A stretch of 64,000 bases of DNA from contig JAHJYC010000004.1 of the NCBI GenBank assembly GCA_018826905.1, positions 141,717-205,716 of the forward strand, read 5' to 3'. This DNA comes from Patescibacteria group bacterium (GTDB lineage: Bacteria; Patescibacteriota; Minisyncoccia; Phycocordibacterales; Phycocordibacteraceae). This document shows, one piece after another, positions 6,487 through 62,820 of the stretch. Position 1 is the first letter of the stretch. The number at the start of each line of letters is the position of its first letter. The translations under genes and the position numbers were made by a program. The notes beneath the pieces are model-generated. The model worked only from the letters and a program-made list of their open reading frames with translations. It searched no databases and had not been told where the DNA came from.

Positions 6487-6517
6487 AAGGCAAAACCCAC
6501 CCTTGTGGGGCGGGTTT
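6487..6517 (-). terminator. Hairpin downstream of the RNase P RNA (AAAACCCGCCCC-ACAA-GGGTGGGTTTTG in the minus orientation).
   Basis: A GC-rich imperfect stem with a short U tract, lying immediately 3' of the predicted rnpB 3' end. Confidence 0.35.
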
Positions 6518-6519
6518 TG

Positions 6520-6868
6520 CACGAATGGATACCGGTCCGATAAGCCGAATTCTGTCCCTTCAAAGAAGAGGACGGTCATCTATCTGGGAGTGTTGTTACC
6601 AACACCCTCAAGCGGCGCTCCCGCACGAGGACGGGCACGGCCTTGCACAGGGGTAAGGATTTAGCCGTTTCAGCTTGAAGTCACCTTCAGGACACTCTTA
6701 GAAAGAGTCTCTATCCTTTCGGAATTGAGCGTTTCTGTTCGCACCTCGCGCCTTTCGGCGGACGGGCGTTACCCGCTACCTGTCTGCAGCGAACTGCCTG
6801 TGTTCGGACTTTCCTCTCTACAATACAAGTATCATAGAGCGACCGTCTGGGCCGGTCCATATATATTA
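6520..6868 (-). ncRNA. rnpB: RNase P RNA (bacterial M1-like RNA).
   Basis: The minus-strand sequence carries the universally conserved P4 and neighbouring elements. These are GAGGAAAGUCCGAACAC (E. coli GAGGAAAGUCCGGGCUCC), GGUAACGCC in the P10/11 region, and the 3'-proximal GACAGAAUUCGGCUUAUCGGACCGG (E. coli GACAGAACCCGGCUUAUCGGUCAG). The 5' segment CCCAGACGGUCGC aligns with E. coli CCAGACAGUCGC, and the P1 ends can pair. The region contains no credible ORF. Confidence 0.75.
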
Positions 6869-6879
6869 TACAACGATCT

Positions 6880-7344
6880 TTATTGCTGCGCTAGAGGCAG
6901 CTCAATCTGTGTTCCTATAGTCCACCCTTGGCGCTCAGCCTCTCCTGGGACAGTTTCAAGAACGTAGCGTACTGGTTCTGGGGGAAAGAATGATTGAGGA
7001 AAAGACTCCGGTGTTGCTTCTTGTTCAATTCCTATGATAGTTCCATCGTCTCTAATCCAGATCATATCAATTGCAAATTGCATGTCTTTCATCCAAAAGC
7101 CATGGAGGTCTTTTTGTGGAAAGACAAAGAGCATTCCATAGTTTTCTGGAATACTTGTGCGTCCACTTAACCCTTGCTCCCGTGTCGCATCTGTAGACAC
7201 TATTTCATAAGTGAAAGAAGCAGATGTCTCCACCTGTGTCGCAGCTGGAGGAGCTGGTGCCTGCACTCTTGTAGCAACAAAGAAGATTCCTCCAAAGAGA
7301 ATTCCTATAATAAGCGCAGGCAGAGCTAGTTTGAGGTAGTTCAT
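6880..7344 (-). CDS. DUF192 domain protein (COG1430-like), membrane anchored.
   Basis: 154 aa with an N-terminal TM helix. The core (GLSGRTSIPENYGMLFVF...FWMKDMQFAIDMIWI...DGTIIGI) matches the DUF192 pattern. Confidence 0.6.
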   Translation of the reverse strand: MNYLKLALPALIIGILFGGIFFVATRVQAPAPPAATQVETSASFTYEIVSTDATREQGLSGRTSIPENYGMLFVFPQKDLHGFWMKDMQFAIDMIWIRDDGTIIGIEQEATPESFPQSFFPPEPVRYVLETVPGEAERQGWTIGTQIELPLAQQ

Positions 7345-7378
7345 AACGTGTTGGAAAAAATTCTTAACACAAGATAGC

Positions 7379-7464
7379 GGAGGCGGAGAGATTCGAACTC
7401 TCGAGACCCTTTCGGGCCTGCCGCCTTTCCAAGGCGGTGCACTAGACCTCTATGCGACGCCTCC
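7379..7464 (-). tRNA. tRNA-Ser (anticodon GGA).
   Basis: The minus-strand sequence GGAGGCGUCGCAUAGAGGUCUAGUGCACCGCCUUGGAAAGGCGGCAGGCCCGAAAGGGUCUCGAGAGUUCGAAUCUCUCCGCCUCCG folds as a cloverleaf with a 7-bp acceptor stem, a CCGCC/GGCGG anticodon stem, loop UUGGAAA (anticodon GGA), a long variable arm typical of tRNA-Ser, and a GGUUCGAAUCU T-arm. Confidence 0.85.
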
Positions 7465-7498
7465 TGTGCGTGGCTGTTATACCACAAATTCCCTTCTC

Positions 7499-8392
7499 TT
7501 ACGCCCCCTTTCCAAGCAACGCTTCAACCCTGTCCTCAACCGGCGGATGCGTTGAGAAGATGCGGTTCATGAACTTGCCTGCTTGGTTTCCAAAAGGGTT
7601 TCCGATAAAGAGGTGCGCTGTTGCATGATTGGCCCGGCGCATAGGCTGCGCATATCCACTAATCTTCTGAAGTGCTGACGCAAGTCCCTCAGGATAGCGC
7701 GTAAGGAGAGCTCCAGAGGAGTCCGCAAGGAACTCTCTTCTTCTAGAAATTGCCATCTGAATAAGTTGGGCTGCGAGTGGCGCCAAGATTGCTGCAACAA
7801 GAGCGAGTACAAGGAAGAGCGCTCCGCTCTTGTTGTCTCCTCTATCGCCCCCGCCAAACAACGACATGCGTAAGAACAAATCTGCGATTATGGCAATAAA
7901 GCCCGCAAGCACCACAGCAACGGTCATAACTAGCATGTCCTTATTTCTGATGTGTGAAAGCTCATGTGCAATAACTCCCTCAAGTTCAGCACGGGTAAGC
8001 AAGGAAAGAAGACCAGTGGTTGCGGCTACAACAGCATGCTTTTCATCCCTTCCAGTTGCAAACGCATTCGGTGCTGGGTCTTCAATAACATAGAGCTTCG
8101 GCATTTCCATCCCTGCTGTAATAGAAAGGTTCTCTGTAACTGTATAGAGATCAAAATACTCCTCACGGGTAGCAGGACGTGCTCCGTTCATAGAGAGTGC
8201 AATCTTATCGGAGAACCAGTAGCTCCCTACATTCATAAGCACGGAAAAGATAACTGCTCCATACAAAATAGCAGGGGAGTTGTAGTACCAAGACACTGCC
8301 CACCCAATAGCAATAACTATAATCAAGAACACTGCCATGAGCATGTAGGTCTTGAATACGTTATGTGATCTTTCTTGGTAGAGGTCTGCCAT
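7499..8392 (-). CDS. htpX: Zinc metalloprotease HtpX (peptidase M48).
   Basis: 297 aa with N-terminal TM helices, an HELSH zinc-binding HExxH motif, and a C-terminal region of M48/HtpX type. Confidence 0.9.
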   Translation of the reverse strand: MADLYQERSHNVFKTYMLMAVFLIIVIAIGWAVSWYYNSPAILYGAVIFSVLMNVGSYWFSDKIALSMNGARPATREEYFDLYTVTENLSITAGMEMPKLYVIEDPAPNAFATGRDEKHAVVAATTGLLSLLTRAELEGVIAHELSHIRNKDMLVMTVAVVLAGFIAIIADLFLRMSLFGGGDRGDNKSGALFLVLALVAAILAPLAAQLIQMAISRRREFLADSSGALLTRYPEGLASALQKISGYAQPMRRANHATAHLFIGNPFGNQAGKFMNRIFSTHPPVEDRVEALLGKGA

Positions 8393-8415
8393 AGTTATGT
8401 AGACGAGTATCTCAG

Positions 8416-8727
8416 TTATTTCTTTTCAAAGCGGTCTTTGTCTCGCCCGTAGCACTTGTTCATCTTCTGAGCAAACGCTTCATCAAGATCTATCTCGTGC
8501 TTGTTTGCAAGACACATAGCCGCAAATATCACATCCACAATCTCTTCTCCGAGCTCTTGCGCAGCTTCCTCAGCTTTCTTTTGCTTAGGGCCATACATGT
8601 GATTCACGAGTCGCGCAACTTCCCCAACTTCTTCGGTGAGAGCAGCAAGCTGGGCAAGCGCTGGCCAATAGGGATCCTTAAACCCCTGCGCCCAGTCATC
8701 TATCTGTTTCTGGGCGTCTTTGAGCAT
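8416..8727 (-). CDS. MazG-like nucleoside triphosphate pyrophosphohydrolase domain protein.
   Basis: 103-aa all-alpha protein. LTEEVGEVARLV...EELGEEIVDVIFAAMCLAN matches the MazG/HisE EExxE-type motif arrangement. Confidence 0.5.
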   Translation of the reverse strand: MLKDAQKQIDDWAQGFKDPYWPALAQLAALTEEVGEVARLVNHMYGPKQKKAEEAAQELGEEIVDVIFAAMCLANKHEIDLDEAFAQKMNKCYGRDKDRFEKK

Positions 8728-8731
8728 GGAG

Positions 8732-9292
8732 CTAGAAGGCGACTTTTACGGGCTCGCGTGCAGCTTCTTCCCCTTCTGCAAGTTCAAACAAACTCATCTG
8801 CTTGAAACTGAACATGCCAGCAATAACATTTCCTGGGAACTGCTCTAGTGCTGTGTTGAGTGTCTGCACGGTAGTGTTGTAGAAGCGGCGAGAGGCCATA
8901 ATCTTATTCTCCGTGTCAGACAATTCACGCTGCAGTTCCAAGAAGTTAGTGTTTGCTTTAAGGTCTGGATAGCTCTCAGATACAGCAAAGAGGGACTTGA
9001 GTGCTCCGGTAAGCATATTCTCAGCAGCTGCGTGCTGTTCAACTGTTCCTGCGTTCATTGCTGCAGTACGCGCTTCAGTTACCTGAGCAAGCGTAGTACT
9101 TTCATGCGCAGCGTATCCCTTAACCGTCTCAATAAGGTTAGGGATGAGGTCATAGCGGCGCTTCATCTGCACCTCAATATCAGACCACGCTTCCTTAGCG
9201 CGATTACGCAGACTAATAAAGCCGTTATATGAGAGCACTACCCACAAAACAACAAGGGCGAGTACACCGAGCGCGATATAAAGAATAGTCAT
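8732..9292 (-). CDS. LemA family protein.
   Basis: An N-terminal TM helix followed by the LemA core (YNGFISLRNRAKEAWSDIEVQMKRRYDLIPNLIETVKGYAAHE...). The start is placed at the internal Met (MTILY...); the ORF-track start at 9328 would add 12 poorly conserved residues. Confidence 0.75.
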   Translation of the reverse strand: MTILYIALGVLALVVLWVVLSYNGFISLRNRAKEAWSDIEVQMKRRYDLIPNLIETVKGYAAHESTTLAQVTEARTAAMNAGTVEQHAAAENMLTGALKSLFAVSESYPDLKANTNFLELQRELSDTENKIMASRRFYNTTVQTLNTALEQFPGNVIAGMFSFKQMSLFELAEGEEAAREPVKVAF

Positions 9293-9383
9293 ATACGTAC
9301 ATTGTAAGGTGCAGAAAAATGTATGCAAGTGGTTTGCAGAGCCACTGCCTTAGGTGTAGGGTCAGGTGCGAGGAGGAGAGAAT

Positions 9384-9542
9384 ATGCACATTAATCTGGA
9401 TGGGGTTGCAGACCACTTGGCTGACAAGGTTCTGGCGGCTGTCCCTGCGATCTGCTACACAGCGATTGCGGCGGTAATTGTGATCGGAGCCCTGGAAGCT
9501 TTCCTGCGGCACATAGACAGCACCAAGAGCAACAACAAGTAG
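9384..9542 (+). CDS. Small hypothetical membrane protein of 52 aa (MHINLDGVADHLADKVLAAVPAICYTAIAAVIVIGALEAFLRHIDSTKSNNK). It is too short to appear in the ORF track.
   Basis: A strong Shine-Dalgarno sequence AGGAGG sits 7 nt upstream of the ATG (9371-9376). There is one predicted TM helix, and an intrinsic terminator follows at 9562-9597. Confidence 0.4.
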   Translation: MHINLDGVADHLADKVLAAVPAICYTAIAAVIVIGALEAFLRHIDSTKSNNK

Positions 9543-9561
9543 TCGCCGCCCGAATCACAAA

Positions 9562-9597
9562 CGCCCCAGTCCTTATTTGGACCAGGGCGTTTTTTCT
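9562..9597. terminator. Intrinsic terminator hairpin (CGCCCCAGUCC-UUAUUU-GGACCAGGGCG followed by UUUUUU), probably bidirectional for the small plus-strand ORF and for groEL.
   Basis: A GC-rich stem followed by a T6 run on the plus strand, lying 14 nt downstream of the groEL stop when read on the minus strand. Confidence 0.5.
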
Positions 9598-9610
9598 TGT
9601 GTGTAGGCTT

Positions 9611-11263
<1,653 letters not shown>

Positions 11264-11281
11264 TTACTAGGGGAGTAAGAA

Positions 11282-11593
11282 CTACTGAATAACGGCAAGC
11301 ACATTGGACTCAGAGAGTATGAAATACTCCTGTCCATCAATCTTTACCTCGTCAAATCCGTACTTAGAGAACAGAACGGTGTCTCCAATCTTTACAGAGA
11401 GGGGAATGAGCTTGCCGTCTTCTGTGCGACCTTTGCCAACTGCAACTATTGTTCCGCGTTCTGGTTTTTCTCGGTTGCCCGTGTCGGGGAGGATAATGCC
11501 CATTGCCGATACCTCATCCTTCTTAAGAGGTTGGACAACGACACGATCTCCAAGCGGCGTAATTGAAAGAGTCTCACGTGCTGCTTTAGCCAT
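11282..11593 (-). CDS. groS: Co-chaperonin GroES (Hsp10).
   Basis: 103 aa with the PLGDRVVVQ mobile-loop region and a GroES fold. It lies immediately upstream of groEL. Confidence 0.95.
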   Translation of the reverse strand: MAKAARETLSITPLGDRVVVQPLKKDEVSAMGIILPDTGNREKPERGTIVAVGKGRTEDGKLIPLSVKIGDTVLFSKYGFDEVKIDGQEYFILSESNVLAVIQ

Positions 11594-11638
11594 AGGAAAA
11601 ATATTCGCTTATGCGGGTTTATAACAAAGCTCCATCAC

Positions 11639-11661
11639 TTGGCGCGAGTTCCCTCGCCCAA
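11639..11661. promoter_or_regulatory. Inverted repeat TTGGCGCGAG-TTCC-CTCGCCCAA in the groES leader, a candidate heat-shock operator that does not match the CIRCE consensus.
   Basis: A 9/10-bp inverted repeat with a 4-nt spacer, located between the predicted groES -10 element and the groES start. Canonical CIRCE is TTAGCACTC-N9-GAGTGCTAA. Confidence 0.35.
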
Positions 11662-11672
11662 AGTTATCCACA

Positions 11673-11700
11673 GTATAGAACGCGAGTGAAGTGCGTCAAA
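11673..11700 (-). promoter_or_regulatory. Putative sigma70-type promoter for groES-groEL: -35 TTGACG (11695-11700, read on the minus strand) and -10 TATACT (11673-11678), with a 16-nt spacer.
   Basis: Good matches to both hexamers with canonical spacing, located about 80 nt upstream of groES. Confidence 0.4.
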
Positions 11701-11701
11701 C

Positions 11702-11733
11702 TTGACTCATATTGTTTTTTGTTTTGTTACAAT
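11702..11733 (+). promoter_or_regulatory. Putative divergent promoter for secG: an extended -10 TGtTACAAT (11725-11733), with TTGACT (11702-11707) sitting in the same palindrome GTCAAACTTGAC as the groES -35.
   Basis: The extended -10 lies 57 nt upstream of the secG ATG. The spacing from TTGACT to the -10 is 20 nt, which is long, so the -35 assignment is uncertain. Confidence 0.3.
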
Positions 11734-11789
11734 TATGTGCAGAAATCCATTGCTCCGGACCAGTTCTCGTGCTATTCTCCAGAGCACCG

Positions 11790-12020
11790 ATGGAGACTCT
11801 TTTGGCATATCTGCCCTACATTCAAATAGCACTTGCCCTACTCCTTATCACAGGGATTGTTCTGCAGAACCGCGGAGCATCTCTTGGAGGAGCTTTTGGA
11901 GGCGACAACTTTGCGTCTACATTCTACAAGCGCCGTGGCGCTGAGAAATTTCTTTTTAATGCAACTGTTGTACTCGCTGTCTTGTTTGTACTTGCAGCAA
12001 TTGCTGGACTCTTTGTCTAA
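11790..12020 (+). CDS. secG: Preprotein translocase subunit SecG.
   Basis: 76 aa with two TM helices flanking the Gly-rich SecG motif (LLLITGIVLQNRGASLGGAFGGDNFASTFYKRRGAEKFL). The longer ORF-track version (11712..12020) starts inside the promoter and is rejected. Confidence 0.7.
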   Translation: METLLAYLPYIQIALALLLITGIVLQNRGASLGGAFGGDNFASTFYKRRGAEKFLFNATVVLAVLFVLAAIAGLFV

Positions 12021-12031
12021 CCCCAATTCAC

Positions 12032-13756
12032 TTGTCGCGTATGCGGCCCTCTTCCCTTTTTACTCTGTTGCGCACCCGCCAGCCGATTCCTTGGCTTGAG
12101 GCGCTTTCAGCACATATCCGTTCCCTTTCTTACGGAGACAAGCTCATCGTAAGTGTATTAGGCATATTTGTACTTGCCTCAAGTCTTGCAGGACTCTACG
12201 CACTTGAGCGTTCCTTACTTATTGAGGTACCCGCTCGCGGAGGCAGTCTTACTGAAGGTGTTGTTGGCTCCCCTCGTTTTGTAAATCCTTTGCTAGCACT
12301 CACGGACGCTGATAGAGATCTTACTGCCCTTACGTATGCCGGGCTTATGGGAGTAGCGCCAGACGGCTCTCTTATTCCAGTTCTTGCTGAAAGCTACAGT
12401 GTCTCAGAAGACGGAAAGGAGTATTTGTTTACACTTCGCTCAGATGCACGCTTCTCAAACAATACTCCTGTTACCGCTGAAGACGTTGTCTTTACTATAG
12501 AGAAAGCGCAGGATCCTTCTCTAAAGAGTCCGGAGCTTGCGAACTGGGCAAACATTAAGGCTGAGATTGTTGATGCACGCACCGTGCGATTCCTGCTTCC
12601 AAAACCATATGCACCCTTTCTTGTAGACACCACACTCGGTATTCTTCCTGCACAATTATGGAGGAACATCCCTGTTGATGAATTCCCCTTCTCCCCTCTT
12701 ATGACTGAGCCTGTGGGAGCTGGACCTTTCCAGGTACAGAATGTCACTAGAGGAAAAAAAGGAACGATCATCAGTTACGAACTCCGCGCGTTTTCTAAGT
12801 ACGCACTAGGGCGTCCCTACCTTGATCGTATTCTGCTTCGCTTCTACGAGAGCACCGATGCTCTAGGAAATGCATATCGTAAGGGAACCATTGAAAGCGC
12901 ATACGGCATAAATACGAGTACGGCACTGCGTGTTCCCTACTCTCGTACCTTTGGTGCATTCTTTAACCCAGACGAGAACCCTGTCTTTACGAACCTTGAA
13001 GTGCGCAAAGCACTTTCACTTGCCATTGATAGACAGGCACTAGTTTCGGGTGCCCTTGGGGGAAATGCCACGCCACTCTTTGGCCCAGTCCCGCCCGGAA
13101 GCGGCATAACACAACCAGAGATTCCTGTAGAGGATGGCGTGCTTCTTGCAACAGAGATTCTTGAAGACAACGGCTGGGAACAGGACGCTGAAACAGGGGT
13201 GTGGGAAAATGCAAAGGAAGAGCTACTGCTTGAAACAATTACACTGAAAACGTCAAACGTTCCAGAGCTTAAAGCAGTTGCAACGAGTATAGAGAGCGAC
13301 TGGGAGCGTCTTGGAGTAAATACAGAGATTGAGCTGTATGAGCCAGGGGATCTCGCATCTTCAGTTATCCGCCCTCGTGCGTATGAAGTACTTCTCTTTG
13401 GCATGGTTATCGGAAGAGACCAGGACCTCTTTGCGTTCTGGGATTCAGGAGAGCGAAGCGATCCTGGTCTTAATATTGCAGGCTATGCAAACAGGTCTGT
13501 TGATACACTTCTTGAAAGTGCTCGTGTGGAACTTAATCCTGAGATTGCACGCGCGGACTTACAGAAATTATCTCAACTAATTGCAGAAGATTACCCCGCA
13601 GCCTTTACGCATGCACCAGACTTCCTGTATGCTGTGCCTCAAAGCGTGCAGGGTATCCGTCTTGTGCAGATAACCGCACCCGCAGACCGTTTCGCTGCAG
13701 TCCATACGTGGTACCGACGAAGCGAGCTCGTGTGGCCATTTCTTGTTTCAAAGTGA
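12032..13756 (+). CDS. Family-5 extracellular solute-binding protein (SBP_bac_5; oligopeptide/nickel-type ABC substrate-binding protein), membrane anchored.
   Basis: 574 aa with an N-terminal TM anchor and SBP_bac_5-like blocks (NPLLALTDADRDLTALTYAGL, FTLRSDARFSN, ITAEDVVFT). Confidence 0.65.
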   Translation: MSRMRPSSLFTLLRTRQPIPWLEALSAHIRSLSYGDKLIVSVLGIFVLASSLAGLYALERSLLIEVPARGGSLTEGVVGSPRFVNPLLALTDADRDLTALTYAGLMGVAPDGSLIPVLAESYSVSEDGKEYLFTLRSDARFSNNTPVTAEDVVFTIEKAQDPSLKSPELANWANIKAEIVDARTVRFLLPKPYAPFLVDTTLGILPAQLWRNIPVDEFPFSPLMTEPVGAGPFQVQNVTRGKKGTIISYELRAFSKYALGRPYLDRILLRFYESTDALGNAYRKGTIESAYGINTSTALRVPYSRTFGAFFNPDENPVFTNLEVRKALSLAIDRQALVSGALGGNATPLFGPVPPGSGITQPEIPVEDGVLLATEILEDNGWEQDAETGVWENAKEELLLETITLKTSNVPELKAVATSIESDWERLGVNTEIELYEPGDLASSVIRPRAYEVLLFGMVIGRDQDLFAFWDSGERSDPGLNIAGYANRSVDTLLESARVELNPEIARADLQKLSQLIAEDYPAAFTHAPDFLYAVPQSVQGIRLVQITAPADRFAAVHTWYRRSELVWPFLVSK

Positions 13757-53528: not shown

Positions 53529-54356
53529 TCAAGGGCGCTTCCACATAACTTCCATCTCTTTTTCGGACTTTTTAGGATGCGTGCTGAAAAGAAGTGTAGA
53601 ACCTTCCTTCGGGAAGTCTTCAATACGAACGACATCCGGTTCTAGGTCAAAATGCTCTGTAACTACACGAAGAGATTCCAGAACTGACACAAACACCTCC
53701 TTAGTAGCAACAGTCTTAAGAAAGTTTATATATGGACGATCCTGTAGGAAGTCTCGGTTCCCAAACTGAGCATGGGTGAACCCGGAGAGTCGTGAGTAAA
53801 GTGGGGCATGGGTGTCTTTGAGATCGAGCTCTGAAAATATCTCGCTTATACTCTTGCCGTCCCAGTGATGCCTTCTCTTTCCTGCTGGCTTATGACTCTT
53901 TAGTTCCTCCTGCATTTTCCTGAGCAACTTGGCCTGCAATTCGGATATATTCGGTAGACTTTCCGTTCGCATCACATACTCACGTAGTGGATAGTGATAA
54001 AAATTCCGCGCTCGCTGCTCCGTGTCCTTTTGATAGATGTATTGGAGATTTATGGAGTTCTCAAGTAGAGACCGTGCAAGTGTGAGGCATGGAAGGAATC
54101 TGCCTTTCTTGCGTAGAGTGATAATAGACTCGTATATGTCTATATTCTCCTCTACCAGGAAACGCGTAACTGCAAAAAGCTCTGGAGTGGTTTTCCTTTC
54201 CAGCTGACTTAGGTTTGAAAGATATCTGTGCAGGAATACTACGATCTCTCGCAGGTCCTTTATCTCTCCACTTTCCCAGAATCTAAGCATATACAGGGAG
54301 TATATGCTTCCTGGCCAGGATGACGAATTAGGGATTAAATTCACTCGCACCAACAT
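53529..54356 (-). CDS. Hypothetical alpha-helical protein carrying a HEPN-like Rx5H motif (YSRLSGFTHAQ); a candidate Abi/HEPN RNase-like protein.
   Basis: 275 aa in the AT-richer region flanking the integrative island. Its start overlaps the upstream membrane-protein gene by 29 nt, so the two are likely translationally coupled. Confidence 0.35.
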   Translation of the reverse strand: MLVRVNLIPNSSSWPGSIYSLYMLRFWESGEIKDLREIVVFLHRYLSNLSQLERKTTPELFAVTRFLVEENIDIYESIITLRKKGRFLPCLTLARSLLENSINLQYIYQKDTEQRARNFYHYPLREYVMRTESLPNISELQAKLLRKMQEELKSHKPAGKRRHHWDGKSISEIFSELDLKDTHAPLYSRLSGFTHAQFGNRDFLQDRPYINFLKTVATKEVFVSVLESLRVVTEHFDLEPDVVRIEDFPKEGSTLLFSTHPKKSEKEMEVMWKRP

Positions 54357-55005
54357 ATTTACCTACGACAGCACTCGACTTGGAGGCTGCTGGGAAGAAA
54401 GACAGTGTATTCCGATACAGCATGTTCTCTAGTTCGCCGTCGAAAGACGCGATGTAGTGCCGCTCAAGCAATGCTGTTTCCTCAGCAGTACGTGCTCTTC
54501 CAAGAGAAAGAGTGCCGTATTGGCGATACGCTAGATTGAGCGCATTCGCATCGTCAAAGAAATTGAGTGAGACTTTCGTGCCATGCGCTTTGGTCAGATC
54601 ACGAACCCATCCCGTAACATTATTCTTGAACGAAGCATCTGATAGCTCCACTGGGTCTATGAGCAGATAGAAGACAATTCCTCCATCAGATCGCTCTTTA
54701 GAAGTTTGTACGATTTGGGGTGCTGTAGGCACCAGAGACTCACTTACTGACTGGACTTGTGCAATTGATTCAGTTGTTGCTGGGGTTTCGGCCTCAACCT
54801 CTATAGAAGGCTCAACGGTCGTAATCACAGGAGGCTTAGAATCACTCGGAGGAGCCGTGGCACCAAAAAGAATAAAGAGAACCACTAGCGTAGCTCCAAA
54901 ACCAAGTCCGATGACTTTTCTAGACTGCTTAAAGACTGAAGGCTTAATCAAACCAACGACAAGTCCGACAAGAGACACGAAAAACAGAAAGAGAAAAATA
55001 CCCAT
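54328..55005 (-). CDS. Hypothetical membrane-anchored protein (N-terminal TM helix, Pro/Thr-rich linker, globular C-terminal domain).
   Basis: 225-aa ORF. The left copy of the island direct repeat lies within codons ~25-31. Confidence 0.4.
   Translation of the reverse strand: MGIFLFLFFVSLVGLVVGLIKPSVFKQSRKVIGLGFGATLVVLFILFGATAPPSDSKPPVITTVEPSIEVEAETPATTESIAQVQSVSESLVPTAPQIVQTSKERSDGGIVFYLLIDPVELSDASFKNNVTGWVRDLTKAHGTKVSLNFFDDANALNLAYRQYGTLSLGRARTAEETALLERHYIASFDGELENMLYRNTLSFFPAASKSSAVVGKYVGASEFNP
54908..54929 (+). repeat. Left direct repeat CCGATGACTTTTCTAGACTGCT (attL-like).
   Basis: It matches 60931-60951 at 20/21 positions with a single 1-nt indel; 16 nt are identical (ACTTTTCTAGACTGCT). 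Confidence 0.6.
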
Positions 55006-55290
55006 ACGTAGTTCCTTTAAGGCGAGTAAGCCTAGAAGCGGAATTGTGCGGGTAGCACAAAACCCGCCACCAGGAGCCCGAAGGCCTATAGAAGTTTCCC
55101 TCTATAACGTAGGACACGCCCTGATGACGGGTTTTCTATGTCCTACGATTTTCGACCATGCTCGGGATTCCTCCGCAGGTTTAGGTCATTCTTATTCAGT
55201 TGTTGCCCAGGCTTAGCGCCGTACTAGAACATTAGCGTACAAACGAGAAAGTGTGTAGGTCAGAGCCATAAGCGAGTATAATTTGACTCA

Positions 55291-57597
55291 ATGCCCGATT
55301 ACAATTTCCAAACCCTTAACGATAGAGAGTTTGAGAGGTTAACTCGTGATTTATTGCAAAAGGAAACAGGTCTTACGTTCGAGAGTTTTAAACCTGGGCG
55401 TGATGGGGGTATAGATTTACGCCATTCCTCTCCAACAGAAGATGTGACTACTATTGTTCAGGCAAAGCATCGAGTCCGAGCCAGCTATAAGGATCTTTTG
55501 TATGACCTCAGCAAGACTGAGCTACCAAAAGTTAAGAAGCTGGAGCCCTCACGTTACATATTAGTAACTAGTGTTGAATTTAATCCCGCCCAAAAGAAAG
55601 AACTGAAGAATCTTTTTGCTCCCTATGTTCTTACGACTGGAGATATCCTTGGTAGAGATGACTTAAACGGACTGCTCGGAAAATTTTCTGAAATTGAAGA
55701 GAAGCATCCAAAACTATGGTTATCGAGTATTCCTATACTTAATAAGATTGTAAATAACGGTATAAAGGGCCGTTCTGATTTTACAGACGAAGTGATTAGA
55801 AAGAACGTAAGCCTATATGTAGCCAATGAAACATATGCCGAGGCTCTTGAAATTCTTAACGAAGAACAATTTCTTGTAATAGTTGGGGAACCGGGAATCG
55901 GAAAGACGGTTCTTGCAAAAATGCTTATTTATCAGTTGCTTGGAAACGACTACAGACTCGTGACTGTAACAGAAAAGATCTCCGAAGCAGAAGATTTGTG
56001 GGAACCTGAACAGAAACAAGTGTTTTATTTCGATGATTTTCTTGGAGCCAACTACTTAGAAATAGCTCAGTATCATAACGGTGATTCAGCCCTAGTGAAC
56101 TTTATAGCCCGAATAAAATTAGATCCTCTTAAACGTCTTATGCTGACGAGCAGGACTGCAGTTTTGAACCAAGCGGCTCAGGTTTATCCGCGTCTAGAAG
56201 CACCCGGGCTTGAGCTGGCGCGGCACGAAGTAAAAATTGAGGACTACTCAAAGCTAGACAAGGCTCAGATTTTGTATAACCACCTTTACTTTCTAGGTTT
56301 GGGAGAAGATTACAAGCAAAAGGTAAAAGAAGACAAGAATTACTGGAAAATTATAAAGCACAAAAACTATAATCCGCGCCTGATTGAGTTCATTTCTGAC
56401 CCACTGAGACTGAAGGAGGTACCGCCTGAAGATTATATGGGTTTTATACAGGAGAGACTGGATAATCCTGCGGACATATGGAAGCAAGCATATTTACATC
56501 AGACGGACGACTACTGTAAATTCTTGATTCAATCGCTATTTTCTCTTGGCGAAAAAGTTCCCGAACGAATTCTAAAGAGAGCATTTAATGCGCGTTTAGA
56601 CTACGAAATAGAGCACAATGGCTTTCGAAGAGAAGCAGATGTTTATGCATTGCGTCTCAAGCATTTAATGGGCGGATTCTTAAAGGCAGTCAGGCACGGG
56701 GAGAATGTTTATCTCAGTTTCTTTAACCCTTCTATTACAGACTTCTTGTTGCACTACTTAAGTGAGAATAAAGATGAGAAGTGGCGAATACTTAACTCTG
56801 TGATTTTTACATCACAACTTACAAATCGCTTTATAACCAGTAAAGATTCATTGCTCGCGTTCGTCGAGGACGAAATATCGCCACTTGAAGCACTTATATC
56901 GAGAAGAGCTGACGACCTGGTAGACCCAGAAGGCGGATCCAGAGATATAGAGCTACTACACTTTTATTACTTTGCCTTCCCTGTTGATCTTATTGATACT
57001 AAATCTGCACCTATTTTAGAACGCTTGGATCTAGATGAAGCTTTACCATCACAGTTTGATGCATTGCTATCAACTCTTGATGCACTTCAAACATACGACG
57101 AGTCAATTCGGATAGTTAAGAGTCGCTTTCGTGAAATTATAAATTATCTTTTTAGTTCTGATACCGGCGGGAGAAAACTTAGTTCTATCAAGAAGCTTTT
57201 CAAGGCCTACGATGAAAGTTATGAGGAATATATTGCTGACGAGAATAGCCGAACTATTGTTGAATCAGCATTAACCCGACACTGGGGCGAGCGAATTAGC
57301 GATATAGAGGCCGGGCAAGATTCAGACGTTGCGGAATTTGGCACTTCTTCTGAGATTGAGACTTTCATAGGAGAAATTCAAGAGGACGGGAGGCAATATA
57401 ATAGGAGTTTTGGGTTCGCTGAACTGCGAATAATGGAAAGTTTCGAAGATATAGATTATGACGAGATTGCAAGATCCTCAAGAGAGCGTGCACAAATAGA
57501 AGACTATATGTCCGACTACCATGCAGAGGAATATTATTCTGAGCGTTCTGAACCTCAAAGAAACGAGAATGCGGAAATAGACGAATTATTTCAATAA
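55291..57597 (+). CDS. Mrr-like PD-(D/E)xK restriction-endonuclease domain fused to a STAND-like P-loop NTPase and a helical C-terminal region (Avs/AVAST-like architecture).
   Basis: The N-terminus FERLTRDLLQKETGLTFESFKPGRDGGIDLRHS...IVQAKH gives a D...(Q)xK Mrr_cat-like pattern. Walker A is GEPGIGKT and Walker B is VFYFDDFLG (hhhhDD, STAND type). A C-terminal ~400-aa alpha-helical region ends in an acidic, Tyr-rich tail. Confidence 0.55.
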   Translation: MPDYNFQTLNDREFERLTRDLLQKETGLTFESFKPGRDGGIDLRHSSPTEDVTTIVQAKHRVRASYKDLLYDLSKTELPKVKKLEPSRYILVTSVEFNPAQKKELKNLFAPYVLTTGDILGRDDLNGLLGKFSEIEEKHPKLWLSSIPILNKIVNNGIKGRSDFTDEVIRKNVSLYVANETYAEALEILNEEQFLVIVGEPGIGKTVLAKMLIYQLLGNDYRLVTVTEKISEAEDLWEPEQKQVFYFDDFLGANYLEIAQYHNGDSALVNFIARIKLDPLKRLMLTSRTAVLNQAAQVYPRLEAPGLELARHEVKIEDYSKLDKAQILYNHLYFLGLGEDYKQKVKEDKNYWKIIKHKNYNPRLIEFISDPLRLKEVPPEDYMGFIQERLDNPADIWKQAYLHQTDDYCKFLIQSLFSLGEKVPERILKRAFNARLDYEIEHNGFRREADVYALRLKHLMGGFLKAVRHGENVYLSFFNPSITDFLLHYLSENKDEKWRILNSVIFTSQLTNRFITSKDSLLAFVEDEISPLEALISRRADDLVDPEGGSRDIELLHFYYFAFPVDLIDTKSAPILERLDLDEALPSQFDALLSTLDALQTYDESIRIVKSRFREIINYLFSSDTGGRKLSSIKKLFKAYDESYEEYIADENSRTIVESALTRHWGERISDIEAGQDSDVAEFGTSSEIETFIGEIQEDGRQYNRSFGFAELRIMESFEDIDYDEIARSSRERAQIEDYMSDYHAEEYYSERSEPQRNENAEIDELFQ

Positions 57598-57658: not shown

Positions 57659-58987
57659 ATGGAGACAACAATGCTCTATGGAGCTCAGACAGCCGCCCCG
57701 GCACACCAAGCAGCGGTTACCGTCAGATACTGCCTGTATGCCCGTAAATCGAGCGAGGCAGAGGAGCGACAGGCGCTTTCGATAGATTCTCAGGTTAACG
57801 AGATGTTGGCCCTAGCCCAGCGAGAGGGACTGACAATTGTCGACATGTACCGAGAATCTCACTCGGCCAAGGATTGCGGGCAACGGCCAGTATTCAACCA
57901 ACTCCTCACAGACATACGCGAGGGTAAGTTTGACGGAATCCTCGCATGGCACCCTGACCGACTCTCTCGCAACGCCGGGGACCTCGGAGCTATCGTTGAC
58001 CTCTTTGATCAGAAGAAGCTTCTTGAGATACGTACCCATAGTCAGCGATTCACGAATAACCCGAATGAGAAATTCCTTCTCATGATTCTCGGCTCTCAAG
58101 CCAAGCTCGAGAATGACAACAAGAGCATTAATGTGAAGCGCGGACTCAAGACTAAATGCGAGCTTGGGCTTTGGCCTTCAGTAGCGCCAACTGGATACCT
58201 CAACTCCAAGAATAAGGACCAGAAAGGAGTCGTATTCGTGGATCCGGACCGAGCACCAATCATCAAAGAACTATTCAACAAAGTAGCCAATGAAGGATGG
58301 AGCGGACGGAAGATCTACCGCTGGCTCAAAGATATAAAGTTCCTCACTCGCACCGGCAAGCCCCTTACACTCAGCAATGTCTACTGTATTCTCAACAATC
58401 ACTTCTATCACGGTTCATTTGAGTACCCAAAGAACAGCGGTCGGTGGTTCCTGGGCAAACATACTCCGCTCATATCCAAAGAGCTCTTTGATGATGTTCA
58501 GAAACAGCTCCATTTACAGATTAGAGCTCCTAATCGAAATAAGGAGTTCGCTTTCACCCGCCTTCTCTCATGTGGCACATGTGAATCTGGCGTAACAGCA
58601 CAGGAGAAGTTTAAGAGTTTGAAAGACGGATCGATCGCTAAATATATTTATTACGGATGTACGCGTGCGCGGAATATTAACTGTAAGGAGGGCTACATCG
58701 AGGAGAGGGTTCTCATCTCTCAATTAACTGTAATCATTGACCAAATCGACCTTGATCGCTCAGGTATTAAAAAGAAGCTTGAACTTGAGATTGAGCGTCA
58801 CAAGAAATTTCACTCAGGAATTATGGGCAAAACCGACGAAGAGTACTTCGCCAAAGATGCAGACATAAGAAATTACGCTAAGTACCTCCTTACCGAGGGT
58901 TCTATCTTTGAGAAGCGTGACTTACTCACCTGTCTGAAAAGCAAACTTCTTCTAAAGGAAAAGATAATATCTACAACCAGTACCTAG
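57659..58987 (+). CDS. Large serine recombinase (resolvase/invertase catalytic domain plus recombinase domain plus zinc-ribbon domain).
   Basis: The N-terminal resolvase motif YARKSS...Q...SIDSQ carries the catalytic Ser. The length of 442 aa and the Cys cluster CGTCESGVT...YYGCTRARNINC (zinc ribbon) are typical of LSR integrases. Confidence 0.8.
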   Translation: METTMLYGAQTAAPAHQAAVTVRYCLYARKSSEAEERQALSIDSQVNEMLALAQREGLTIVDMYRESHSAKDCGQRPVFNQLLTDIREGKFDGILAWHPDRLSRNAGDLGAIVDLFDQKKLLEIRTHSQRFTNNPNEKFLLMILGSQAKLENDNKSINVKRGLKTKCELGLWPSVAPTGYLNSKNKDQKGVVFVDPDRAPIIKELFNKVANEGWSGRKIYRWLKDIKFLTRTGKPLTLSNVYCILNNHFYHGSFEYPKNSGRWFLGKHTPLISKELFDDVQKQLHLQIRAPNRNKEFAFTRLLSCGTCESGVTAQEKFKSLKDGSIAKYIYYGCTRARNINCKEGYIEERVLISQLTVIIDQIDLDRSGIKKKLELEIERHKKFHSGIMGKTDEEYFAKDADIRNYAKYLLTEGSIFEKRDLLTCLKSKLLLKEKIISTTST

Positions 58988-58993
58988 GAATGA

Positions 58994-60850
58994 TTAGGAG
59001 AAATTAAATTCGTCTTCCTGGAGAGCCTGGTCGACGAAAGTAAAGATTTCTTCAAAAGCCGTTATCGTAGTTTTGCTTAAGTCATCTTTCTTAATCTGTT
59101 TTTTCTTTGCCTTTTCCAAGAACAGTTTTGCAAAGATGTTTTTTCGACTCTTTCCTATATATGAAACGTTATCTTTCTTTTGGGGCTTAGGAGCTAGAGC
59201 AAAGTTCTTTGAACCGCCCGCGATTGTTTGTATATCACTTATCGAAAATAGTTCTTCGATATCAGACACATCGAGGGTCTTAACTTTCTTTTCCGCTCGG
59301 GTCTTGTCTCCAGCAAAAATACCCTCCTTAAGATCATCGAACTTGGCTTGACCGACTGGCTCGCCATCAATTACCACACACCACTTCAAATTGTACCCAA
59401 TACAGATCCCTACAAGAGGGTTCAATTTACTCCCCAATGCCCCAACTCCAGGGATAAGAGCGTAGTCCAATTTCTTTCCAAGAACAATTGCCATTGCTTG
59501 CAAATGCATGTAATCACTTACACCTTCAAGAATTACATTTTTCTCTTTGAAGATGAGATTCTGGTGCGGTACGTCGCAGCCGATTGCGTAGTTAACAAGA
59601 GACATTGCCTCCTGCTTATTCTTAGAATTTCCAATTTGAGTCTTAAGGATATTCTCACAGAGTGTGCCTTGATCCTTATCGTTAAAAACAAGAGCCACAC
59701 GATAGATGGTCTCTAATGGAACTAGAGTCGGTGCATGCGTCGTGTAAAGTATCTGGTGACCGAATTTACCACTAATTTTCTCAAAGACTTTAAGGAGGTC
59801 TTTTTGAGCATTTATGTGAAGGCTTCTATCAGGTTCATCCACCAAAATTATGGCCTTCTTTTCTTTTAATGATTTTAGTGCCAACCAGAAAGATAGGAAC
59901 CAGATCATTCCCTGGCTGCGCATTCTAACTGGTAGTTCTTTCCCTTCTTTGGTCCTAACAGCAAAGTCGATATAGTTCTTTTCAACTTCATCCTCTTTCT
60001 CTTTTCTCTTTTCGATATTAAAAACCAACCCAAGTTTATCGTTCTCAATCCCGTGAAGTTTTTGAGAAAAGTCATTTTTCAGGTCGGCAGTAATATCAGA
60101 AATTCGTTTATTGGTTTCATCAAGGCGACGAATGGAAGGCGTCTCTGCAAGAGACTTGAAGGTAAAATCTGCATTCCCAGTAAGCTCCTGGAGACAAGCT
60201 TCCAACCATGTGACCGAAACCCAGCCATCTCCAGTTTCTTCCACCAGATCATCAATTGATATGAAATCTGGAAGCGTATCGCAAGTCCCTCCTTCAAAAA
60301 ATATAAACTCCGGAATGATGTTATCTACAATGAACTTTCCTACATCTGGGGTAAGGATAGAAGCGTCAAACTCTTCTTCATTTTCATCGGCATCTTCCTC
60401 AGCCTCTACCGATGCTGCACCGGTAGACTCGACCTCAAGGTTATTAATTAAGGCATTCTGAAAAGTTGTATCCAATGAGTAGTTCTTTCCATCAAAAGTA
60501 AGAGTAAAATTTGAAATACGGCTTATGGTATTTGGCTTAAATGCCACAACCTCCTTGAATATTTCCTCGTTCGCGAAATTCTCGATTTCATCTAGAATCG
60601 CAGGCTTATCATCAGCTGCCTCGAAAGAAAACTGACATGAGACAACTTGATCAAGCCCTGCTGGGGATTCATACGGGTAGGAGTCCCCATCAAACTCACC
60701 ATTATAAAAATCTCTCAGGGCCTCTAAGATGCTTGATTTCCCCGATTCATTCTGTCCGATCAGAGACAGAATATTGTCACTTTGACCCAAATCAACCTCT
60801 ACCCTAACGATAGATTTGTAGTTGTGAATCTCAACCTTATCTAGCTTCAT
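58994..60850 (-). CDS. OLD-family nuclease (N-terminal ABC-type ATPase plus C-terminal TOPRIM domain); a stand-alone Class-1-like gene.
   Basis: Walker A is GQNESGKSS. The Q-loop, signature and Walker B are present (AIILVDEPDRSLH), and a TOPRIM-like VILEGVSDYMHL...VVIDGE follows. There is no adjacent UvrD-like partner gene. Confidence 0.75.
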   Translation of the reverse strand: MKLDKVEIHNYKSIVRVEVDLGQSDNILSLIGQNESGKSSILEALRDFYNGEFDGDSYPYESPAGLDQVVSCQFSFEAADDKPAILDEIENFANEEIFKEVVAFKPNTISRISNFTLTFDGKNYSLDTTFQNALINNLEVESTGAASVEAEEDADENEEEFDASILTPDVGKFIVDNIIPEFIFFEGGTCDTLPDFISIDDLVEETGDGWVSVTWLEACLQELTGNADFTFKSLAETPSIRRLDETNKRISDITADLKNDFSQKLHGIENDKLGLVFNIEKRKEKEDEVEKNYIDFAVRTKEGKELPVRMRSQGMIWFLSFWLALKSLKEKKAIILVDEPDRSLHINAQKDLLKVFEKISGKFGHQILYTTHAPTLVPLETIYRVALVFNDKDQGTLCENILKTQIGNSKNKQEAMSLVNYAIGCDVPHQNLIFKEKNVILEGVSDYMHLQAMAIVLGKKLDYALIPGVGALGSKLNPLVGICIGYNLKWCVVIDGEPVGQAKFDDLKEGIFAGDKTRAEKKVKTLDVSDIEELFSISDIQTIAGGSKNFALAPKPQKKDNVSYIGKSRKNIFAKLFLEKAKKKQIKKDDLSKTTITAFEEIFTFVDQALQEDEFNFS

Positions 60851-60930: not shown

Positions 60931-60951
60931 TCGATACTTTTCTAGACTGCT
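60931..60951 (+). repeat. Right direct repeat TCGATACTTTTCTAGACTGCT (attR-like), abutting and overlapping the 3' end of tRNA-Gln by 2 nt.
   Basis: See the left repeat. It lies immediately 3' of the tRNA gene on the tRNA strand. Confidence 0.6.
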
Positions 60952-61020
60952 GCGGGACTAGGACTCGAACCTAGATAGACGGTACCAGAAACCGTAGTCC
61001 TACCATTAGACGATCCCGCA
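60950..61020 (-). tRNA. tRNA-Gln (anticodon CUG).
   Basis: The minus-strand sequence UGCGGGAUCGUCUAAUGGUAGGACUACGGUUUCUGGUACCGUCUAUCUAGGUUCGAGUCCUAGUCCCGCAG folds as a cloverleaf with a U1:A72 pair (typical of tRNA-Gln), an ACGGU/ACCGU anticodon stem, loop UUCUGGU, and a GGUUCGAGUCC T-arm. No CCA is encoded. Confidence 0.85.
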
Positions 61021-61517: not shown

Positions 61518-61600
61518 AGAACTAATGCATTAAAGGAATATACCAATAAGTATACCGCTTCTAGACTGCATGCTATGATTCTCCTGTACAACCGAATACG

Positions 61601-61750
61601 CAGTATCAAGAGTGCGGCGAGGGACCTGGCCCTTTGACCCGTCGGCAACCATTCCTAAAGGAAACGGTGCCCCCAGACCCCAACGCGGGAACGATGCCTC
61701 TGTAACGAAACATCTCCCGTAGTGGGAGATGTTTCGTTTCGTACCTTTAT
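61601..61750 (+). promoter_or_regulatory. SAM-I (S-box) riboswitch with an intrinsic terminator expression platform, sitting in the metK leader.
   Basis: Conserved core AUCAAGAGUGCGGCGAGGGACCUGGCCCUUUGACCCGUCGGCAACC ... GGUGCC ... P1 closing GUAUC/GAUGC. This is followed by the hairpin GAAACAUCUCCC-GUAG-UGGGAGAUGUUUC plus a U-rich tract, 17 nt before the metK ATG. Confidence 0.8.
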
Positions 61751-61767: not shown

Positions 61768-62820
61768 ATGTTTCATCTTCTTACGCATTACACGACCGAG
61801 AGCGTTACTGCAGGACACCCAGACAAAGTCTGCGACCAAATATCAGACGCCATCCTAGATGCCTGCCTCACCCAAGACCCAAATAGCCGTGTTGCTGTTG
61901 AAACCTTTGGGAGCCACGGCACACTCATGATTGGCGGCGAGGTTACCACAACAGCCTCTGTAGATTACGAAGCAATCGCACGCGAAGTGTATGCCTCTAT
62001 TGGCTACACAGAAGACCTAGAGGTGCTCTCACGCGTTGTAACGCAGTCCGGAGACATTGCTATGGGAGTAGACACAGGAGGCGCCGGAGACCAGGGAATT
62101 ATGTACGGCTACGCAACGAACGAGACTGATCAGTATCTTCCGTTAGGTGTTGTGCTCGCCCACGGACTCGCACGAAAACTAGAGGAGCTTCGCACGAGCG
62201 GGACACTCCCCTACCTGCGTCCAGACGGAAAGACTCAGGTAACCATAAAGAATGGAGAAGTAATCACCGGCCTCACTTCAACCCAACACACTGAAGAGAC
62301 TGAACTTGAAACAATCCGTGAGGATCTAACCAAGCACCTCTTCACACCAATCCTCGGAGACCTAAGTAACATAGAAATCCTCGTAAACCCAACAGGACGT
62401 TTCGTACAAGGCGGGTTTGAGGCAGACGCAGGTCTTACCGGTCGCAAGATAATGGTAGACACCTATGGAGGACTTATGCCACACGGCGGGGGCTGCTTCT
62501 CAGGAAAAGATGCAACAAAAGTAGACCGCTCTGCAGCCTATATGTGTCGCTTTGTAGCAAAGAACCTTGTTGCAAACGGACACGCAAAGAAAGCACTCGT
62601 CTCAGTTGCCTACGCTATTGGCCGTGTTGACCCAGTTATGGTTGAAGCATTTGATGAGAACGGAAAGAATCTCTCAGAGATTGTGAACACACACTTTGAC
62701 TTCCGTCCTCTTATGATTCGCGAGCGACTTGGACTCACCCGTCCTATATTCCGCGAGACTGCCGCATACGGACACTTCGGAGTTCAGGGCCGTCCCTGGG
62801 AAGAAATTATCTCTCTTTAG
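61768..62820 (+). CDS. metK: S-adenosylmethionine synthetase (methionine adenosyltransferase).
   Basis: The signature ESVTAGHPDKVCDQISDAILDA, GGGAFSGKD-like GGGCFSGKDATKVDRSAAY, and C-terminal AYGHFG. At 350 aa it is somewhat shorter than E. coli MetK. Confidence 0.92.
   Translation: MFHLLTHYTTESVTAGHPDKVCDQISDAILDACLTQDPNSRVAVETFGSHGTLMIGGEVTTTASVDYEAIAREVYASIGYTEDLEVLSRVVTQSGDIAMGVDTGGAGDQGIMYGYATNETDQYLPLGVVLAHGLARKLEELRTSGTLPYLRPDGKTQVTIKNGEVITGLTSTQHTEETELETIREDLTKHLFTPILGDLSNIEILVNPTGRFVQGGFEADAGLTGRKIMVDTYGGLMPHGGGCFSGKDATKVDRSAAYMCRFVAKNLVANGHAKKALVSVAYAIGRVDPVMVEAFDENGKNLSEIVNTHFDFRPLMIRERLGLTRPIFRETAAYGHFGVQGRPWEEIISL

Follow-up and report, generated by a model that had tools for sequence, protein, structure and literature searches.

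The window analysed here is a stretch of 64,000 nucleotides from a Patescibacteria group bacterium (contig JAHJYC010000004.1), and its gene of interest encodes a protein of 768 amino acids (aa). The protein probably acts as a stand-alone, single-protein antiviral STAND receptor, that is, an Avs-like abortive-infection nuclease of the Mrr_cat-nSTAND3 family, by analogy with its characterised relatives. It contains an N-terminal Mrr-type nuclease, a central STAND NTPase, and a hypervariable helical C-terminal module. As indicated by its position, the gene is cargo of a serine-recombinase element of ~6 kb beside a tRNA-Gln gene in this genome, together with an OLD nuclease. The gene and its domains are as follows:

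55291-57597, forward strand: complete gene of the 768-aa Mrr-nSTAND3 protein (PDC-S73 family), from the list of open reading frames (ORFs) and the translation
55312-55644, forward strand: Mrr-type PD-(D/E)xK nuclease domain, aa 8-118 (Pfam Mrr_cat)
55654-55815, forward strand: helical linker between nuclease and NTPase, aa 122-175 (helices in the AlphaFold2 model)
55816-56292, forward strand: STAND nucleotide-binding domain of the nSTAND3 clade, aa 176-334 (Pfam PF20720)
56293-56805, forward strand: helical lid (HD1) and winged-helix domain, aa 335-505, with a β-hairpin at 464-477; completes the conserved STAND core
56806-57516, forward strand: hypervariable all-helical C-terminal module, aa 506-742, candidate sensor
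57517-57594, forward strand: acidic disordered tail, aa 743-758, and conserved terminal helix and motif, aa 759-768

Family identity and domain architecture

The ORF runs from ATG to stop over 768 codons, exactly at the position given by an initial annotation made from the letters and the ORF list. Its start codon agrees with the family consensus (MxxYxFxTLND) in an alignment of 50 homologues, which share 33-59% sequence identity with the query and were used for the conservation analysis. The PADLOC-DB model PDC-S73 matched aa 1-768 at profile positions 1-750 of 752 (E=4.8e-187), and the homologue from Flavobacterium humi (locus L019) matched this model equally well. The only other PADLOC matches at E<=0.01 were two Aga_ models and mad8; the PHROGs search returned no match. 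The identical 768-aa sequence is present in GenBank (MBU1293125.1 and others) as 'restriction endonuclease [Patescibacteria group bacterium]'; UniProt and NCBI list homologues under the name 'nSTAND3 domain-containing NTPase'. Judged by these matches, the protein is a member of the already catalogued PDC-S73/nSTAND3 family; the initial annotation had called it possibly undescribed, which holds in the experimental sense but not for the databases. The instance is distinguished by its Patescibacteria host and its serine-recombinase cassette, and nothing structural differs from PDC-S73. The PDC models were introduced as 145 predicted 'phage defence candidates', which were selected as genes embedded in BREX, DISARM, and type I restriction-modification (R-M) loci by 'guilt-by-embedding' (Payne et al., bioRxiv 10.1101/2024.01.29.577857). 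PADLOC treats PDC-S73 as a single-gene candidate ('S'). Scans for promoters and terminators performed no better than on shuffled sequence.

The N-terminal nuclease was detected as Mrr_cat (aa 8-118) above the Pfam gathering score (28.7 bits against 21, E=1.6e-6). The catalytic core includes E15, D38, D42, Q57 and K59, and the part from D38 to K59 is encoded at 55402-55467. The residues G36, D38, G40 and D42 of the GRDGGID motif, and Q57, K59 and H60 of the QAKH motif, are invariant in the 50 homologues; the E15 is conserved in at least 90% of them. In the AlphaFold2 model, aa 1-120 form the α-β-β-α-β core expected for a PD-(D/E)xK nuclease, in which D42 opens one strand and Q57-x-K59 lies in the next. 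The Mrr N-terminal DNA-binding domain (Mrr_N) was not detected by Pfam, and the nuclease itself is N-terminal. The helical linker that follows has a conservation of 0.60-0.65. Residues 3-163 also matched the N-termini of the PADLOC models Aga_REase-TIR-PNTD1-PNTD2 and Aga_TIR-PNTD1-PNTD2 (E=1e-40 and 1e-28, respectively). By this match of the N-terminal ~160 aa to Argonaute-associated models, the nuclease and linker are a portable effector module that a second kind of defence system also uses.

The NTPase was assigned to Pfam nSTAND3 (PF20720, 'Novel STAND NTPase 3') at aa 176-334 over the full profile (positions 1-155 of 155, E=1.4e-47), with a score of 161.7 bits against a threshold of 27.2; other NTPase families in Pfam scored on the P-loop alone. 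The Walker A motif is GEPGIGKT (aa 199-206, 55885-55908), and the Walker B motif is VFYFDD (aa 244-249, 56020-56037). The G199, G202, G204, K205, D249, and R288 (in LTSRT) are invariant in the 50 homologues, and D248 is conserved in at least 90%. The nucleotide-binding domain is followed by the helical lid and the winged-helix domain, the arrangement by which the nucleotide-binding oligomerisation (NOD) module of STAND proteins is recognised.

A model of the full protein was built with AlphaFold2 from the 50-sequence alignment (mean pLDDT 84), and a second model covered aa 326-768 (pLDDT 89.8, pTM 0.78). The best Foldseek match was EfAvs5 (9jap_A, E=4.7e-8, 772 aligned columns), followed by EcAvs4 (8dgf_B, 5e-8), the Avs5 filament (9nc9_E), CED-4, Apaf-1, NLRC4, Sr35, and RPP1. 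The PDB was also searched by sequence with three queries (family profile, nuclease module, NTPase core), and only generic P-loop matches were returned; the Avs5, Avs4 and Mrr structures were absent from them. The initial annotation had read the protein as an Mrr-like nuclease, a STAND rather than a classical AAA+ NTPase, and a helical end in an Avs-like layout, and all of this agrees with the profile matches, the conserved motifs, and the top folds (Avs5, Avs4, CED-4, Apaf-1). Neither of the two outcomes that it had named as contrary to this reading was observed: the NTPase fell into no non-STAND family, and the nuclease fold was predicted at the N-terminus.

Hypervariable C-terminal module and acidic tail

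The C-terminal half is mainly helical in the AlphaFold2 model, and the hairpin at 464-477 is its single β-element. Through residue 510, column conservation ranges over 0.51-0.73; beyond it the values drop at once, and residues 511-750 score only 0.32-0.38. The drop explains why many homologues align over only 67% of the query, and why tblastn segments end near residue 510-520. An exhaustive HMMER search with aa 505-768 found only 11 proteins among 1.84 billion representatives, and all of them match at the equivalent position in ~765-aa proteins or their fragments. This version of the sensor thus appears to be rare, fast-evolving, and not detectably shared with other architectures by sequence. 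In the fold search of the predicted model, the last ~250 aa had no match to any solved fold. Such hypervariability would be expected where an immune receptor recognises its ligand, and this module may be that part of the protein.

The tail that follows is disordered at residues 743-755 (pLDDT <50) and ends in a confident helix at 759-767. Since fairly high confidence was kept in the model of aa 326-768, the terminal helix is suggested to pack against the C-terminal half. The last 60 aa contain 19 D/E against 6 K/R. Among 118 full-length homologues, the mean net charge of the last 60 residues is -8, and 95% of the proteins are net negative there. Moreover, the motif [IV][DN]xLF occurs within the last 45 residues in 113 of the 118, whereas 45-aa windows elsewhere in these proteins contain it at a background rate of 12%; of the five exceptions, four have a near-variant (IVDLF, IIDLF, IHELF or IHDLF). 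The motif in the query is IDELF (aa 763-767, 57577-57591), and in the alignment of 50 homologues L766 is conserved in at least 90% and F767 in 100%. On this comparison, the acidic tail with its conserved terminal motif is a family-wide feature. The acidic end had been described as unusual in the initial annotation; it is indeed present, but it is typical of the family.

The C-terminal tip of the bacterial single-stranded DNA-binding protein (SSB) is DDDIPF. Acidic-(L/I)-P-F endings were found in 15 of the 118 homologues. Some Flavobacterium-type homologues (e.g. P0033, P0060, P0097, P0111, P0112) have INRLF and, in addition, an acidic stretch that ends in a terminal W(D/N)DLPF. We take these endings to resemble the SSB tip. 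The acidic tail and the (I/V)(D/N)xLF tip could in principle be a functional mimic of nucleic acid or of the SSB tail, and thereby serve a 'bait-tail' mode of sensing, although this is considered quite unlikely. The resting tail might then plug the receptor's own DNA-binding surface or groove, and activation might follow when the tail is captured by a phage protein that grabs SSB-type or clamp-type tails, or displaced by DNA. If true, this would add a new mode of activation among STAND immune receptors. A sensor of only ~235 aa might then be sufficient, and the frequent siting of the gene beside ABC-ATPase systems that process DNA ends (OLD, Lamassu) could be accounted for.

Proposed function and mechanism

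Since PDC-S73 is only a candidate, we infer the antiviral function and its steps from characterised relatives, with Avs5 as the precedent for the chassis, and Avs3, Avs4, and Avs7 as precedents for a nuclease that oligomerisation activates. At rest, the protein would be held in an autoinhibited, nucleotide-bound state, as a monomer or dimer. A phage-derived product, most likely a protein, would bind to the hypervariable helical module (aa ~506-742). The core of nucleotide-binding domain, lid, and winged helix (aa 176-505) would thereby be released, bind ATP, and oligomerise into a ring or an Avs5-like filament. Oligomerisation would gather the N-terminal Mrr-type PD-QxK domains (aa 8-118) into active dimers or tetramers; the active nucleases would then degrade DNA indiscriminately, and the infection would be aborted. 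The acidic tail and the (I/V)(D/N)xLF tip are probably an intramolecular latch or a docking peptide.

Distribution and neighbouring genes of the family

A word-indexed search of 5.8 billion protein clusters found at least 2,426 homologues, so that a chance ORF or domain match is not an issue. Nearly all of them are 760-800 aa long and contain the two Pfam domains Mrr_cat and nSTAND3. One genome per species was scanned, and at least 459 loci proved to encode a member; they belong to Patescibacteria, Bacteroidota, Proteobacteria, Firmicutes, Chloroflexota, Planctomycetota, and other groups. Homologues are also encoded on 58 plasmid records, of which 31 are conjugative, and on three phage records. 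For example, the temperate Clostridium phage HM T carries a solitary member of 787 aa (gene HMT_19, L091 5998-8361). It lies between the replication genes and the sigma-factor/integrase region, a position consistent with a prophage-encoded superinfection defence.

The neighbourhoods of 78 family loci were compared by clustering all ORFs within 10 kb, and the counts given are raw. Only two types of neighbour recur, the OLD-family and Lamassu. Genuine OLD-family proteins were found in 9 of the 78 loci, adjacent to the STAND gene in 8; they are also present in L005 (14 bp upstream) and in this window. The neighbouring OLD proteins combine AAA_15 with an OLD-like TOPRIM domain, and match the PADLOC model 'Old' at 1e-40 to 1e-53. 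Complete Lamassu/ABC-3C operons are located directly upstream of the STAND gene in 9 loci of Bacteroidota or Ignavibacteria, and this arrangement spans Flavobacteriia, Sphingobacteriia, Chitinophagia, and Ignavibacteria:

About 5600-12400 in each of L015, L017, L018, L019, L020, L021, L025, L027 and L032: LmuACB-STAND loci

The gene order there is LmuA (Cap4 nuclease-CTD1), LmuC (MComp1), LmuB, and Mrr-nSTAND3, and the last two genes are separated by -8 to +29 bp. For OLD and LmuB together, the gaps on the same strand are mostly -16 to +29 bp, with a maximum of 181 bp. OLD or Lamassu occurs in about 14 of the 25 closest loci; about 59 of the 78 have neither within 10 kb. The remaining 110 immediate neighbours include type I, II, and IV R-M systems, PbeA, DRT, MADS, and other PDCs, each in 2-3 loci.

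Where STAND proteins share 43-58% sequence identity, their OLD neighbours share only 15-28%; the Mantel correlation (r=0.34, p=0.013) is driven by one pair. The similarities of LmuB and STAND are likewise incongruent (Mantel r=0.22, p=0.17); for example, the STAND proteins of L019 and L025 share 72% sequence identity, whereas their LmuB proteins share 29%. An obligate co-evolving partnership with OLD or Lamassu was therefore rejected on frequency and incongruent divergence. The partnerless loci and the lack of co-divergence favour an autonomous function. The gene appears to be an autonomous module that has been placed repeatedly beside ABC-ATPase defence operons, and it might interact functionally with them.

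A homologue of 49% identity is flanked by an MmeI-type R-M gene and an OLD gene. In L005 (6221-14516, homologue P0003), a Patescibacteria-type defence island contains OLD, STAND, an MmeI-family type IIL R-M gene, and an HTH-SocA_Panacea protein, and has two flanking tRNA genes. A recombinase related to the one in the window was found nearby in only 4 of the 78 loci. In L008 (Saccharibacteria), a recombinase of 56% identity overlaps the start of the STAND gene, and the OLD gene is convergent. The same trio of recombinase, STAND, and OLD is present in L009, a metagenome-assembled genome of Bacteroidota, in a different gene order. The STAND proteins of L008 and L009 are 88% identical although the two metagenome-assembled genomes are assigned to different phyla; the adjacent OLD proteins are 46% identical. 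Either the recombinase/STAND/OLD cassette was recently transferred between phyla, or the binning is in error.

The putative integrative element in the Patescibacteria window

The gene had been placed in a mobile island next to an OLD-family nuclease by the initial annotation; the island and the OLD gene were both recovered, and a serine recombinase lies between the two genes. The features around the STAND gene are as follows:

54914-54929, no strand: left copy of the perfect 16-nt direct repeat ACTTTTCTAGACTGCT, candidate att site
55075-55187, reverse strand: LOOT RNA (Rfam RF03000; full-length cmscan match to model positions 1-121 of 121, E=2e-9; 58.9 bits, gathering score 46.4)
57659-58987, forward strand: large serine recombinase, 62 bp downstream of the STAND gene (Pfam Resolvase and Recombinase)
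58994-60850, reverse strand: OLD-family ABC-ATPase nuclease (Pfam AAA_15, AAA_21; PADLOC models AriA, Old, GajA)
60936-60951, no strand: second, right-hand copy of ACTTTTCTAGACTGCT, also a candidate att site; shares 2-3 nt with the 3' end of the tRNA-Gln gene
60949-61020, reverse strand: tRNA-Gln(CTG)

The recombinase matches the integrase family PHROG 95 (E=9e-68), and is likely the integrase of the element that carries the STAND gene. The OLD gene converges on it, with 6 bp between the stop codons. The repeat ACTTTTCTAGACTGCT has only these two copies in the window, even when two mismatches are allowed, against 0.07 expected by chance. The GC content is 0.415-0.44 between the repeats and about 0.45-0.50 outside. 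The segment bracketed by the repeats is 6,022 bp long and contains the LOOT RNA, the STAND gene, the serine recombinase, and the OLD gene. It looks like a small integrative defence cassette beside tRNA-Gln, with the repeats as candidate attL and attR; however, the left repeat falls within the 5' end of a 225-aa ORF. An exact lookup of the DUF1761 flank did not find an island-free allele, as all contigs carry the island.

The LOOT RNA is a single copy in the window. Inside the repeat-bounded segment, it occupies the strand opposite to the STAND gene, 104 nt before the start of that gene. It is located in a GC-rich spacer of 285 bp that separates the 225-aa ORF from the STAND gene, about 70 nt upstream of the start of the 225-aa ORF on the same strand. 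As 8 related loci lack it, the possibility that the LOOT RNA travels with the STAND family was rejected. LOOT is not described in the main text of Weinberg et al. (2017). A gene for a DUF5677 protein (53529-54356, reverse strand, E=4e-22) overlaps the 225-aa ORF (54328-55005, reverse strand), which has no family assignment, a weak transmembrane-like N-terminus, and weak PHROG matches. Both are located between a housekeeping 2-hydroxyacid dehydrogenase gene and the cassette, have no PADLOC match, and may be further cargo of the island. A SAM riboswitch (61600-61700, forward strand, 46.6 bits) lies upstream of the S-adenosylmethionine synthetase gene (61768-62820), and a bacterial RNase P class A RNA is present at 6525-6858 (reverse strand, 132 bits). 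These ordinary housekeeping RNAs confirm a chromosomal origin of the region.

Evaluation of the proposed function and alternative explanations

Several observations weigh against a stand-alone Avs-like receptor. No PADLOC AVAST/Avs model matched the 768-aa protein at E<=0.01, and the NCBIfam search gave sub-threshold P-loop matches only. A literature search for 'PDC-S73' found no paper and no experimental report on any member; Payne et al. (bioRxiv 10.1101/2024.01.29.577857) themselves call the 145 candidates, PDC-S73 among them, untested. The global TM-scores to Avs5 and Avs4 are low (0.22-0.26), which indicates that the likeness is domain-wise and not a common overall conformation. The sensor is unlike any known Avs sensor, Avs5 included, and no Avs5/SAMD9-type fold was found in it. 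It is also small (~235 aa); Lee et al. (2026) restricted their sensor clustering to regions of at least 400 aa behind the NTPase domain. Moreover, the tight same-strand spacing to OLD or LmuB, in about a quarter of the loci, could mean co-operation.

Instead of sensing phage proteins, the enzyme might be an NTP-dependent, DNA-sensing restriction enzyme like the type IV/McrBC systems. The winged-helix domain and the helical C-terminus would then bind foreign or modified DNA, the NTPase would drive assembly or translocation, the Mrr domain would cut, and no phage protein would be recognised. The GenBank label, the weak P-loop matches to McrB, and the presence of Mrr_cat in a family of modification-dependent restriction enzymes would fit such an enzyme; PDC-S73 was also defined from BREX, DISARM, and type I R-M loci, and R-M genes adjoin several homologues. 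It is nevertheless unlikely, since the NTPase matches nSTAND3 at E=1.4e-47, whereas the McrB and AAA+ matches span the P-loop only (E>0.001). In addition, the family loci have no conserved methyltransferase partner, Pfam detected no Mrr N-terminal DNA-binding domain, and the hypervariable 250-aa C-terminus is typical of protein-sensing arms-race receptors, not of DNA-modification readers. In a second alternative, the protein would be partnered functionally with an ABC-ATPase defence system, either OLD or Lamassu LmuACB, as an extra sensor or a second effector that works only jointly with it. This is also held to be improbable. The abutting OLD genes in 9 of the 78 loci and in L005, the OLD one gene away in the window, the LmuACB operons immediately upstream in 9 loci, and the narrow same-strand gaps across several bacterial classes and phyla would be expected of a partner, as would the frequency of both systems in the closest loci and the recurrence of the recombinase/STAND/OLD trio in L008 and L009. 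However, most of the loci have neither system, the homologue of phage HM T is solitary, and the divergence of OLD and LmuB does not track that of STAND. The association with two unrelated systems also points to co-location rather than a fixed complex, and PADLOC models the family as a single-gene candidate.

It is very unlikely that the gene is a maintenance or competition module of the serine-recombinase element, such as an addiction-like toxin or a weapon against rival mobile elements. In favour of such a module, the STAND gene is co-oriented with the recombinase and 62 bp upstream of it, the two genes overlap in L008, the 16-nt repeat brackets the cassette next to a tRNA gene, and the family is frequent on conjugative plasmids. 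However, no antitoxin-like partner is conserved in the family loci, and a related recombinase is nearby in only a few of them (4 of 78). The tripartite STAND protein with its hypervariable sensor fits trigger-dependent immunity, and defence genes commonly ride on such elements anyway. A stand-alone antiviral receptor thus remains the probable function.

If this function is true, a very widespread and experimentally untouched nuclease-STAND family would join the antiviral STAND repertoire. Its members would have an nSTAND3/Avs5-type chassis in which an Mrr nuclease replaces SIR2, together with a compact hypervariable sensor. At ~770 aa, they would be a conveniently small model of how triggers are recognised and how oligomerisation activates a nuclease. 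The locus is one of the few defined defence cassettes in small-genome Patescibacteria (candidate phyla radiation, CPR); its STAND, OLD, and serine-recombinase genes are enclosed by 16-nt repeats at a tRNA gene, and it could help the study of how episymbionts acquire immunity. Current concepts are unchanged, and the family is an incremental, testable addition; the points of note are the conserved acidic tail motif, the recurrent OLD/Lamassu adjacency, and the compact serine-recombinase cassette in a CPR genome.

Comparison with known systems

The protein has the layout of Avs in the broad sense, with an N-terminal effector (Mrr_cat), a central STAND NTPase (nSTAND3), and a variable helical C-terminal module. 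The association with defence islands and mobile elements that is typical of Avs was also found, in the neighbours, the plasmids, and the prophage (raw counts). E. coli Mrr and the type IV restriction endonucleases share Mrr_cat with the D...QxK motif; they differ in that no Mrr_N was found in the 768-aa protein, whose nuclease is N-terminal and fused to a STAND NTPase and a variable sensor. The REase/TIR-APAZ proteins associated with short pAgo resemble it in the N-terminal ~160 aa (Mrr nuclease and helical linker). However, the 768-aa protein has no TIR domain, APAZ, or Argonaute partner, and the shared module is fused to a STAND NTPase.

In Avs3, Avs4, and Avs7, too, a PD-(D/E)xK-type nuclease at the N-terminus precedes a STAND NTPase and a sensor, but these proteins are 1,500-2,000 aa long, with large tetratricopeptide-repeat sensors and NTPases of other clades. 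The nuclease of SeAvs3 and SeAvs7 is of the Cap4 type, unlike the Mrr_cat domain. In the Cap4-nuclease Avs7, DNA cutting needs a trigger-induced tetramerisation that assembles the nuclease. Further relatives in the SAMD9-like group are Avs6 (PNP effector) and Avs9 (AlbA_2 effector) (Legrand et al. 2025). The available text of Lee et al. (2026) describes 589 STAND clades and names Avs7-24; the Mrr-nSTAND3 family is not named in that part, or in the available text of Legrand et al. (2025).

The closest parallel is Avs5 (AVAST type 5, SIR2-STAND; EfAvs5 9jap, filament 9nc9, PaAvs5), which has the same order of effector, NTPase, and helical C-terminus. Its solved chains (769-833 aa) are similar in size to the 768-aa protein, which had been regarded as much shorter than a typical Avs; this is right for Avs1-4, but not for Avs5, the best structural match. 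No similarity to these chains was found at the sequence level. The effector of Avs5 is a SIR2 NADase; whereas the 768-aa protein has no SIR2 match and carries an Mrr PD-QxK nuclease. In the paper on PaAvs5, its NTPase was assigned to Pfam nSTAND3 behind the SIR2 effector, with activation by phage proteins; the activator is the jumbo-phage protein JADA. Filamentation in Avs5 is ATP-dependent, and EfAvs5 is activated by filamentation, with T7 gp1.7 as the trigger. Activation of this kind is the best mechanistic template for the 768-aa protein. Because SIR2, an Avs5-type sensor, and a PADLOC Avs match are all lacking, the protein was not filed under Avs5, and it is best described as a separate nuclease-bearing family on the nSTAND3 chassis.

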